Assembly (NCBI GenBank): GCA_965203805.1
Contig: OZ241917.1
Location: 5,801,458 to 5,865,457 of the forward strand
Reading direction: 5' to 3'
DNA: 64,000 bases
Source of the DNA: Candidatus Latescibacterota bacterium
GTDB taxonomy: Bacteria > Latescibacterota > UBA2968 > GCA-2709665
Shown here in pieces: positions 40,471 through 42,197 of the stretch (within the stretch, counting starts at the first letter, position 1; each line of letters opens with the position of its first letter). Under the pieces are notes generated by a model. It was not told where the DNA came from. It worked only from the letters and a program-made list of their open reading frames with translations, and searched no databases. Both the position numbers and the translations under genes were made by a program.

Positions 40471-41634
40471 TCAGTGGATCAGCCGCTCTTCCAGCGCACG
40501 AAACGGGTGCGGAATGAGATGGGCCGACACGAGTTCGCCGTACCTCTCCGCTTCCCCGGCCCCGACTTGCAGGGCGGTGCGCACCGCGCCGACGTCTCCC
40601 CGGACAACGCTTGCCGTGAGAAAGTACCCGACCTTGTATCGACCCTCGTATTCCACGTCCGCGGACTTCAACATCTGATCAACGGCCTTGACCAGAGCCA
40701 CGGTGCTGCGCGTCTCGATCAGGCCCATGGCCTGATTCCCGCTCGTGGTCCTTCCGGCCTCGCACCGGCCGAAACAGGCCATGATTTCGGAAGACGGACG
40801 GGAAACGACGCAGGATGCATTCAGTTCTCCGGCCTCCTGCGCGCCGCCGACACCGGCGTCGACGGCCGCCTGGACGGCGTCCAGCCGGCCTTTCACCAGT
40901 GCGTCCACCCGGCCTCCGCTGGCGATGACGAGGCGCACGAGGTCGACGTCCGCCGCTTTGACCATTGCGTCGGAACCGCCCACAGCGCTTGCATAACCCG
41001 TTGTTTCAAGCACTCCGAGCGCGCCGGCGTCTTCCCGGGGCCCGTTTGAAACCGGTGGTACCGGAAGCAGTGGTTCGACGCCCGCCTCCGGCCTCGGAAT
41101 CGTCAGGGCCGCGTAGACTTCCCCGACCTCATCGGCACACGCTTTGCCGGCCTGCAGGGCAGTCTGCACCGATGAAATATCGCCCCGAACCACGAGATGG
41201 ACCAGCGCGCCGCCAACCGACGTCCAGCCGGCGACGCGAACGGGCGCGCTCTTGACCATCGCGTCTGCGCCACGGATGAGCGGGACCATGCCCCGCGTTT
41301 CGAGGATGCCCATCGCCCCGGCGTCAAACGGGCCTTTGGCGTCCGCGTCCGTCCGGTGCGGCATGGACTCGAGGGCGCCCGGGACCGGGCCCGCGATGAC
41401 GTCGGCGGTAATCAGGTCGCCGTGGTTCACGGCTTCGGATCGTCCGATCCGAATGGCGGCCTCGACGTCCGATACGACACCTTCGATCACAACCGTCAAC
41501 CAGCCGGAACCCACGCCGTGACGTCCCAGAACCCGAACGTCGACGGTTTTCAGCATGGCGTCCACGGCCGCGACAAGCGCGGTCATGCCGCGGGTTTCCA
41601 GAATCCCCAGGGCATGATTTCGCGGGGGCGCCAC
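40471..41634 (-). CDS. Bacterial microcompartment shell protein with four tandem BMC (Pfam00936-like) domains
   Basis: Four repeats: ALGILETRG..DAMLK, AMGILETRG..DAMVK, ALGVLETTG..DAMVK, AMGLIETRS..DQMLK. Probable GTG start at 41634. Confidence 0.88.
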   Translation of the reverse strand: MAPPRNHALGILETRGMTALVAAVDAMLKTVDVRVLGRHGVGSGWLTVVIEGVVSDVEAAIRIGRSEAVNHGDLITADVIAGPVPGALESMPHRTDADAKGPFDAGAMGILETRGMVPLIRGADAMVKSAPVRVAGWTSVGGALVHLVVRGDISSVQTALQAGKACADEVGEVYAALTIPRPEAGVEPLLPVPPVSNGPREDAGALGVLETTGYASAVGGSDAMVKAADVDLVRLVIASGGRVDALVKGRLDAVQAAVDAGVGGAQEAGELNASCVVSRPSSEIMACFGRCEAGRTTSGNQAMGLIETRSTVALVKAVDQMLKSADVEYEGRYKVGYFLTASVVRGDVGAVRTALQVGAGEAERYGELVSAHLIPHPFRALEERLIH

Positions 41635-41639
41635 GGCGC

Positions 41640-42197
41640 TCAGGGACCGAATGCCCGCAGGACGTCGGGCAGGGGTCTGGTGATGAGGGCGGCGCCCAGG
41701 TAGTTTTCTCCGGGCTCGACGCTCGTGCGGCCCACGGGCAGGGCCTCGGACACGGAAGCCACGTCGCCAAGTATCAGGGAGCAGACCACCCGGTTGTGTA
41801 CGGTGAGCACGTTGTAGACCTGGACGTCGGCCGCCTTCACCATTTTGTCGTTGGCGGTGACGTGAGCGCCATATCCTCTCGTTTCGATCATACCCAGCGC
41901 TCCGGACGGTGTCCGCCGCCCGGATGCGATTGCATTCGAGACGTATTCCCGGCAAACGGGTTCGGGGTGGGTCATCGGCGCCGCCACGACGTGGTCCACC
42001 ACCTCTCTGGCCGCCTGTTCGCCGCTCTTGAGCGCCGTTGCCACCCGGCTGATGGATCCGCCGAAAAAAACGGTGGTGAAGCCACCGATGGATTCCCAAC
42101 CCAGAAGATCCACGCCCGCGGCTTTGCAGGCGGCGTCCGACGCCAGAATAATCCCGGCGACGCCTTCGACTTCGATCATGCCGATCGCTGCTGACAT
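41640..42197 (-). CDS. Tandem-domain BMC shell protein (BMC-T-like)
   Basis: AIGMIEVEG..DAACKAAGV and ALGMIETRG..DKMVKAADV, ending in ITRP. Confidence 0.9.
   Translation of the reverse strand: MSAAIGMIEVEGVAGIILASDAACKAAGVDLLGWESIGGFTTVFFGGSISRVATALKSGEQAAREVVDHVVAAPMTHPEPVCREYVSNAIASGRRTPSGALGMIETRGYGAHVTANDKMVKAADVQVYNVLTVHNRVVCSLILGDVASVSEALPVGRTSVEPGENYLGAALITRPLPDVLRAFGP

Follow-up and report, generated by a model that had tools for sequence, protein, structure and literature searches.

Two adjacent genes in the genome of a Candidatus Latescibacterota bacterium (GenBank assembly GCA_965203805.1) encode proteins with two and four bacterial microcompartment (BMC) shell domains, here named T2 and T4, which probably associate in a 1:1 ratio to form a heterodimeric and fully asymmetric six-domain pseudohexamer. 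The genes are located in a stretch of 64,000 nucleotides of contig OZ241917.1 (positions 5,801,458 to 5,865,457 of the forward strand), referred to as the window, and positions are those of the window unless another locus is named. The combination of four and two domains in one ring is the best supported explanation of the synteny of the genes, their coupling, the specialisation of the six domains into separate classes, the geometry of the models and one model of the complex, and from these lines we infer the binding of T2 to T4, the 1:1 stoichiometry, the incorporation into a shell and the function of the pore. The original prediction, made from the letters of the window, had proposed that the two proteins complete one asymmetric ring, and it is supported by the domain counts, by the adjacency of the genes in 80 of 83 genomes and by the complex model.

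According to the mechanism proposed, T2 and T4 would be expressed from one operon with coupled translation and would associate one to one into a single hexagonal shell tile, with the six BMC domains arranged round one ring in gene order (T2D1, T2D2, T4D1, T4D2, T4D3, T4D4 and back to T2D1, where D1 to D4 denote the domains). All six outer edges would carry the lysine which joins tiles, and since this lysine is kept at every edge the tile could fit a normal position in a shell facet. Because all six domains differ, the central pore would lack internal symmetry, having a glycine-rich half, a bulky half and two conserved arginines, and such a single-copy pore may select or gate one particular, probably anionic, metabolite. 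The likely compartment would be an aldehyde-processing metabolosome, with the adjoining DHDPS-family protein as a linked enzyme.

T4 is the downstream gene of the pair, its frame being opened by a GTG codon at 41634 and ending at 40471, and this codon is accepted as the start because without it domain 1 would lose its initial beta strand (residues 7-15, modelled with confidence). The Pfam profile PF00936 matches T4 in four stretches (E 7.7e-76, 250.5 bits) and T2 in two (E 1.7e-32, 111.6 bits), in both cases above the curated cut-off of 24.5 bits and far beyond chance. The open reading frames and the profile counts confirm the earlier claim that genes only 5 nucleotides apart encode two and four BMC domains, and the count with PF00936 which had been suggested as a check returned four for T4 and two for T2. 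The best stretches are unpermuted throughout, covering profile positions 1-72 or 1-75 of 75. A BMC-H protein has a single PF00936 domain per chain, while T2 has two and T4 four; the class BMC-T(s) is characterized in passages of PMC8217296 by exactly two unpermuted PF00936 domains per chain, a count which T2 alone shows and T4 does not. The circular permutation typical of BMC-T(dp) and BMC-T(sp) is absent from both proteins, as the order of strands and helices in their models is canonical. Within T4 the domains start 97-99 residues apart, and all three linkers are alike in length.

The T2-T4 pair is a conserved unit, encountered in about half of the sampled genomes of the phylum (83 of 168). 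T4 occurs in these 83 genomes in one copy each and T2 in 84 of the 168, one of them having a second T2 on another contig. In 80 of the 83 T4 genomes T2 is positioned directly upstream of T4 with the same orientation, the aligned parts of the two being separated by 8-47 nucleotides in 79 genomes and by 196 nucleotides in one. The three exceptions are partial T4 matches in fragmented assemblies of 660-820 contigs, and the single case of T2 without T4 is a truncated match in an assembly of 980 contigs. The survey of neighbours which the original prediction had called for thus comes out in its favour, the cases outside the 80 being partial matches in fragmented assemblies. In all 30 related loci compared, the T4 start codon is found between -13 and +12 nucleotides from the T2 stop. 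A start codon close around the preceding stop is the usual signature of translational coupling, and because of these positions translation of T2 and T4 is likely to be coupled.

A search for T4 among 8000 scored candidates gave 255 homologues at E <= 1e-3, the best 120 of which are 366-424 residues long and 53-96% identical. For T2 there are 429 homologues, the best 120 of which measure 183-212 residues; as far as source names and record titles tell, the homologues come from Latescibacterota and Gemmatimonadota. A two-domain frame is followed by a four-domain frame in 11 of 12 species-level loci of the named genome collection, the remaining locus having the four-domain frame broken into three plus one, and all genomes with the pair, like the 30 loci, retain the gene boundary after domain 2. 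No fused six-domain form was seen among the best 120 of the 255 T4 homologues or among the 150 representatives listed. The only longer T2 relative found (P0392, 411 residues) begins as T2, passes through a non-BMC stretch, resumes T4 domain 1 and then loses BMC-like sequence again; it was rejected as a natural fusion, being most likely a frameshifted metagenome contig, and finding no fusion is in itself weak evidence.

Conservation along the two proteins was scored on alignments of 83 T4 and 84 T2 homologues. Every domain has the edge motif D-x-x-x-K, whose lysine makes the tile-to-tile contact of BMC domains, and the D and K of all six motifs are invariant or at least 90% conserved, the invariant lysines being K25 and K121 of T2 and K29, K128 and K226 of T4, and the at least 90% conserved one K323 of T4. 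The edge motifs named beforehand (DAACK, DKMVK, DAMLK, DAMVK, DAMVK and DQMLK) are all present, as are the six different pore loops (SIGG, TVHNR, GVGSG, SVGGA, IASGG and KVGY), each of which is conserved individually. In a maximum-likelihood tree of 90 domain slices the six domain positions fall into six classes; five of these each make up one side of a branch and the position labels take 5 changes on the tree, the fewest possible, the T2 domains being long-branch classes. The pore residues were located by transferring the register of PduA (edge K26, pore S40, according to the title of the structure entry) and counting onward from each edge lysine. By this analogy the pore tips would be G39 and N135 in T2 and S43, G142, G240 and Y337 in T4, presumably with F40, F338 and the invariant R136 and R242 beside them. 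A metal or iron-sulfur site, for which the invariant H39, H93 and H146 of T4 together with C139 (invariant) and C82 (at least 90% conserved) of T2 were considered, was dropped.

Both folds are modelled with confidence by AlphaFold, with a mean predicted local distance difference test score (pLDDT) of 91.9 and a predicted template modelling score (pTM) of 0.90 for T4, and 94.5 and 0.91, respectively, for T2. The best match of both models among solved structures is 6NER, a synthetic tandem BMC-H chain in an assembled shell. Neighbouring domains of T4 superpose on 6NER with a target template modelling (TM) score of 0.88-0.92 and a root-mean-square deviation (rmsd) of 1.8-3.8 A over 181-190 columns, and T2 does so with a query TM of 0.83-0.84 and an rmsd of 4.2-4.8 A. 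This suggests that successive domains of T2 and T4 are placed as neighbours in one hexagon, and because they superpose in this way T4 would take up four adjoining positions of the ring, with two left vacant. About half of T4 is the most that any listed solved chain covers, with a query TM of 0.44 at best and no listed target longer than 201 residues.

When T4 and T2 were modelled together, each with its own alignment, the complex scored 0.75 compared to 0.00 for the best of three controls. The mark applied is reached by 58 of 80 solved complexes and by 2 of 110 mismatched pairs, counts which are only a rough guide here since own alignments were used. Three runs share at least 91% of the contacts, and the pLDDT of the partner is 89 or more. 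Domain 1 of T4 with its tail (residues 9-93) is in contact with domain 2 of T2 (residues 107-138), and domain 4 of T4 (residues 309-366) with domain 1 of T2 and its tail (residues 7-87), so that in the model the contacts close a ring in gene order. The modelling of a 1:1 heterodimer, another of the checks proposed at the outset, accordingly passed its mark with ring-closing contacts.

Some indication of expression comes from metatranscriptome contigs of two studies, which match the T2-T4 pair at 90-99% identity. Two RNA-library contigs of one study bridge the T2-T4 junction at about 94% identity (record 10 of X2, covering 40699-42195, and record 15 of X3, covering 41560-42215), and the RNA runs X1 and X4 hold no record which crosses the junction by 31 letters on both sides.

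The genome, a single contig of 5.87 Mb, contains eight PF00936 matches, six of them within T2 and T4 and two at a main compartment locus near 2.46 Mb, and no ordinary BMC-T is found among these whole-genome matches. BMC-P (PF03319) and BMC-H genes are thus present in the genome of the pair, as in a genome with a microcompartment, and the eight matches and the main locus with its BMC-H and BMC-P genes mark the T2-T4 pair as a satellite of a complete microcompartment system. Further open reading frames of the main locus read like aldehyde dehydrogenase, class II aldolase and acetate kinase, as judged from translations rather than a profile search, and we take this locus to resemble the Planctomycetes-Verrucomicrobia type.

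The gene next after T4 is the DHDPS-family gene in 27 of the 30 loci L093-L122 and in all 12 of the loci L012-L023, two sets which may overlap. The N-terminal extension of the enzyme, a candidate encapsulation module, resembles the N-terminus of a 164-residue protein encoded in a related locus (L018:5508-6002; 34% identity over 64 residues, E 5e-7), and with this protein as query no homologue was found in the genome of the window. Separately, structure rows of the atlas list similar short N-terminal pieces on clusters of other cargo-type families (aldolase II, PTAC and RpiB), at low TM and of use as leads only. A fuller T2-T4 locus is present in distant relatives (L018:1227-11094, as well as L017, L019, L020 and L022). 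Its gene order in L018 starts with a fumarylacetoacetate-hydrolase (FAA-hydrolase) family gene, an aldehyde dehydrogenase (PF00171), PTAC (PF06130), a two-domain BMC protein, a BMC-H and the 164-residue protein, and continues with T2, T4, the DHDPS-family gene, a flavin adenine dinucleotide (FAD) oxidoreductase (DAO) and a further, weak match to the DHDPS family; the locus possibly represents a kind of metabolosome still to be described. To the FAD oxidoreductase the genome of the window has only matches of at most 30% identity. Coordinates are collected in Table 1.

Table 1. Positions of the T2-T4 pair, its domains and the associated features; positions refer to the window unless a contig, locus or protein identifier is given
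Feature	Position	Strand	Description
T2 gene	41640..42197	-	ATG-started open reading frame, 185 residues; two unpermuted BMC (PF00936) domains; proposed ring positions 1 and 2
T4 gene	40471..41634	-	GTG start, 387 residues; four unpermuted BMC domains; proposed ring positions 3 to 6
T2-T4 spacer	41635..41639	-	5 nucleotides from T2 stop TGA to T4 start GTG; from sequence
T2 domain 1 (residues 4-76)	41970..42188	-	Edge D21/K25; pore loop S-I-G-G-F; invariant G33, W34, G38, G39; from secondary structure and conservation
T2 domain 2 (residues 100-172)	41682..41900	-	Edge D117/K121; pore loop T-V-H-N-R; invariant R136, C139; from secondary structure and conservation
T4 domain 1 (residues 7-81)	41392..41616	-	Edge D25/K29; pore loop G-V-G-S-G after R38 and invariant H39; from model and conservation
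T4 domain 2 (residues 107-179)	41098..41316	-	Edge D124/K128; pore loop S-V-G-G-A; invariant G136, W137, G141; from model and conservation
T4 domain 3 (residues 204-278)	40801..41025	-	Edge D222/K226; pore loop I-A-S-G-G-R; invariant G240, G241, R242; from model and conservation
T4 domain 4 (residues 302-374)	40513..40731	-	Edge D319/K323; pore loop Y-K-V-G-Y-F; from model and conservation
DHDPS-family gene	39262..40431	-	PF00701 at residues 74-361, N-terminal extension of about 70 residues; candidate cargo; from Pfam
Downstream of DHDPS-family gene, 1	38240-39184	-	314-residue protein; no Pfam match; conserved in L012-L016
Downstream of DHDPS-family gene, 2	37489-38226	-	PhyH-family dioxygenase
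Downstream of DHDPS-family gene, 3	36409-37377	-	Zinc-type alcohol dehydrogenase
Upstream gene 1	42303-44723	-	806-residue multi-pass membrane protein; no Pfam match; same place in L012-L016
Upstream gene 2	44848-49419	-	1523-residue protein with Peptidase_M28 and FtsX domains
Upstream gene 3	49488-51494	-	DUF6785/DUF6784 protein
Main compartment locus	G000:C1:2462700-2469800 (L092:6740-13721)		BMC-H (93 residues), three BMC-P (PF03319), 155-residue BMC-H with C-terminal extension
Three-domain PF00936 proteins	P0252-P0256, P0258, P0259, P0261, P0262, P0264, P0277, P0280, P0292, P0294		About 283-330 residues; three full unpermuted domains

On the question of how the six domains arose, a careful tree restricted to the six classes pairs ring positions i and i+3, namely T2D1 with T4D2 (87/96), T2D2 with T4D3 (99/86) and T4D1 with T4D4 (95/79). 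This pairing was not recovered in a quick tree to which 14 three-domain proteins and 8 BMC-H were added, and mean identities together with hhalign back it for T2D1-T4D2 only, T2D2-T4D3 being backed by hhalign alone. The odd/even grouping, which is expected from a triplicated two-domain gene, was not rejected by the approximately unbiased test (p 0.333). A duplicated three-domain ancestor, which would fit the pairing of i with i+3, was tried and did not hold up. In the models, the path of the T2 and T4 chains round the ring seems unlike that of classical BMC-T(s), a hint that BMC-H-like domains were fused independently here.

Several points weigh against the 1:1 heterodimer. Two independent shell paralogues sharing an operon would equally be adjacent and co-occur, and related loci such as L018 contain genes for a BMC-H and for an ordinary two-domain BMC protein, both possible fillers of the gap left by T4. 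Solved structures include many BMC hexamers and trimers, and the pass of the complex model may reflect likeness to known rings instead of specific binding; its controls were unrelated proteins rather than BMC-H or other BMC-T proteins, which places the specificity of T2 for T4 outside their scope. The RNA-library contigs may hold carried-over DNA, and a contig across two genes is no proof of one transcript. It nevertheless appears unlikely that T2 and T4 are independent paralogues, with T2 forming a BMC-T-like homotrimer and T4 a homotrimer of 12 domains, either as stacked rings or as side-by-side rings sharing chains. Such an arrangement is in line with the solved two-domain BMC proteins, which are trimers (e.g. 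PduT, 3n79 and 3pac, and HO-5812, 5dih), with the divisibility of 12 domains by 6 and with operon adjacency, and stacked double discs are described for BMC-T(dp) in passages of PMC8217296. The 12-domain double ring, which the original prediction had named as an alternative, is disfavoured by indirect arguments only. In such an assembly a T4 chain must depart from the ring after its second or third domain, but the three linkers are similar (starts 97-99 residues apart), and the four domains are modelled as one rigid unit (pTM 0.90) with the geometry of in-ring neighbours between successive domains. The domains are also unpermuted, unlike those of the stacked BMC-T(dp) class, T2 and T4 co-occur almost perfectly (84 versus 83 of 168 genomes) with neither clearly found alone, and the ring-closing model of T2 with T4 passes its mark.

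We also regard it as improbable that T4 takes four places of the ring while the other two are filled promiscuously, by two BMC-H, by another two-domain BMC protein or by T2 part of the time, with T2 perhaps trimerising as well. The strict pairing, order and coupled translation in 80 of 83 genomes argue against such filling, as do the specialised, long-branch T2 domains with their own conserved pore loops, which fit a dedicated position, and the fact that in the genus of the window the pair has no other shell gene nearby. Mixed hexamers of BMC-H paralogues are nonetheless reported in parts of PMC6788708, two BMC-H genes are available at the main locus of the same genome, and related loci encode an extra BMC-T and BMC-H beside the pair. 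That T2 and T4 are not shell tiles at all, and instead form a scaffold, a tube or a sheet or represent a decaying remnant, seems very improbable: the distance of 3.4 Mb between the pair and the main compartment locus is an indirect point in its favour, whereas all six edge lysines are conserved, both folds are confident, T4 homologues are 53-96% identical (best 120 of 255), the pair in relatives is situated within a locus with aldehyde dehydrogenase, PTAC, BMC-T and BMC-H, and T2-T4 sequence is present in RNA libraries.

A more far-reaching proposal built on the asymmetric T2-T4 pseudohexamer can be put forward only tentatively, and we hold it to be somewhat doubtful as a whole. In this proposal the pair may be an obligate heterodimer that adds a seventh class to the building blocks of microcompartments, its six domains being non-equivalent and fixed in order. 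Its symmetry-free pore would resemble a single metabolite-binding site, and its unique faces would offer one docking place per tile for the DHDPS-family cargo with its conserved N-terminal module; it might serve a hitherto undescribed metabolosome of Latescibacterota and Gemmatimonadota with DHDPS, FAD-oxidoreductase and aldehyde dehydrogenase. The tiles described in the literature searched have pores built from identical or three-fold repeated subunits, which are hence symmetric. If a natural tile of six different domains exists, it would demonstrate that a shell pore can take the form of one asymmetric binding site, which bears on how shells select metabolites and cofactors, and shell engineering would gain a natural scaffold in which the six positions are separately changeable and an added feature is present in one copy per tile. 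With members in about half of the sampled genomes of the phylum (83 of 168), the family is no curiosity of one genome.

A T2+T4 tile was not found described as a building block in the literature searched, nor were natural chains with three or four BMC domains, supplements and their locus catalogues being outside the scope of that search. Passages in PMC8217296, PMC4207490, PMC9052549 and PMC3909097 name only one- and two-domain shell proteins, and the locus catalogues or shell-protein trees of PMC8217296 may list T2 and T4, e.g. under FRAG types in Gemmatimonadetes. Among known shell proteins, BMC-T(s) (PduT, 3n79/3pac; HO-5812, 5dih) are similar in having several unpermuted PF00936 domains per chain and a pseudohexameric tile, and T2 has the same length and domain count. 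They are homotrimers of two-domain chains with a three-fold pore, in contrast to the four- and two-domain chains, the proposed heterodimer and the symmetry-free pore of T2+T4. The placement of domains differs from that in natural BMC-T(s) chains as well, 3n79, 3pac, 3nwg and 5dih giving a TM of 0.40-0.45 and an rmsd of 15-17 A against T2 and T4, and PduT, 3nwg and HO-5812 superposing on a single domain only. Stacked double trimers of BMC-T(dp) (CsoS1D and CcmP, in passages of PMC8217296) are a known route to 12 domains and the model for a T4 homotrimer, but their chains have two circularly permuted domains while those of T2 and T4 match the Pfam profile end to end without permutation.

The premise of the original prediction that tiles are made only from BMC-H homohexamers or BMC-T homotrimers is too strict, since hetero-hexamers of CcmK proteins are reported and three-domain PF00936 proteins exist in nature. 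The CcmK3/CcmK4 hetero-hexamers of beta-carboxysomes, as portrayed in parts of PMC6788708, resemble T2+T4 in being hexagonal tiles made from more than one gene product, and differ in their single-domain subunits, their variable stoichiometry and the lack of a covalently fixed order of six domains. The natural three-domain proteins (about 290 residues; 14 of 149 representatives, with 9 of 9 tested confirmed by Pfam) share with T4 more than two unpermuted BMC domains per chain and presumably reach six domains as dimers (2 x 3); they are 29-42% identical to T4, show no consistent domain-by-domain orthology to the six classes and need no second gene product. The best match in both sequence and fold is the synthetic tandem BMC-H fusion 6NER (phmmer E 2e-38). 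It is engineered, contains two identical domains and forms a homotrimer, in which it differs from T2+T4, and it shows that BMC-H domains fused head to tail can tile a shell.

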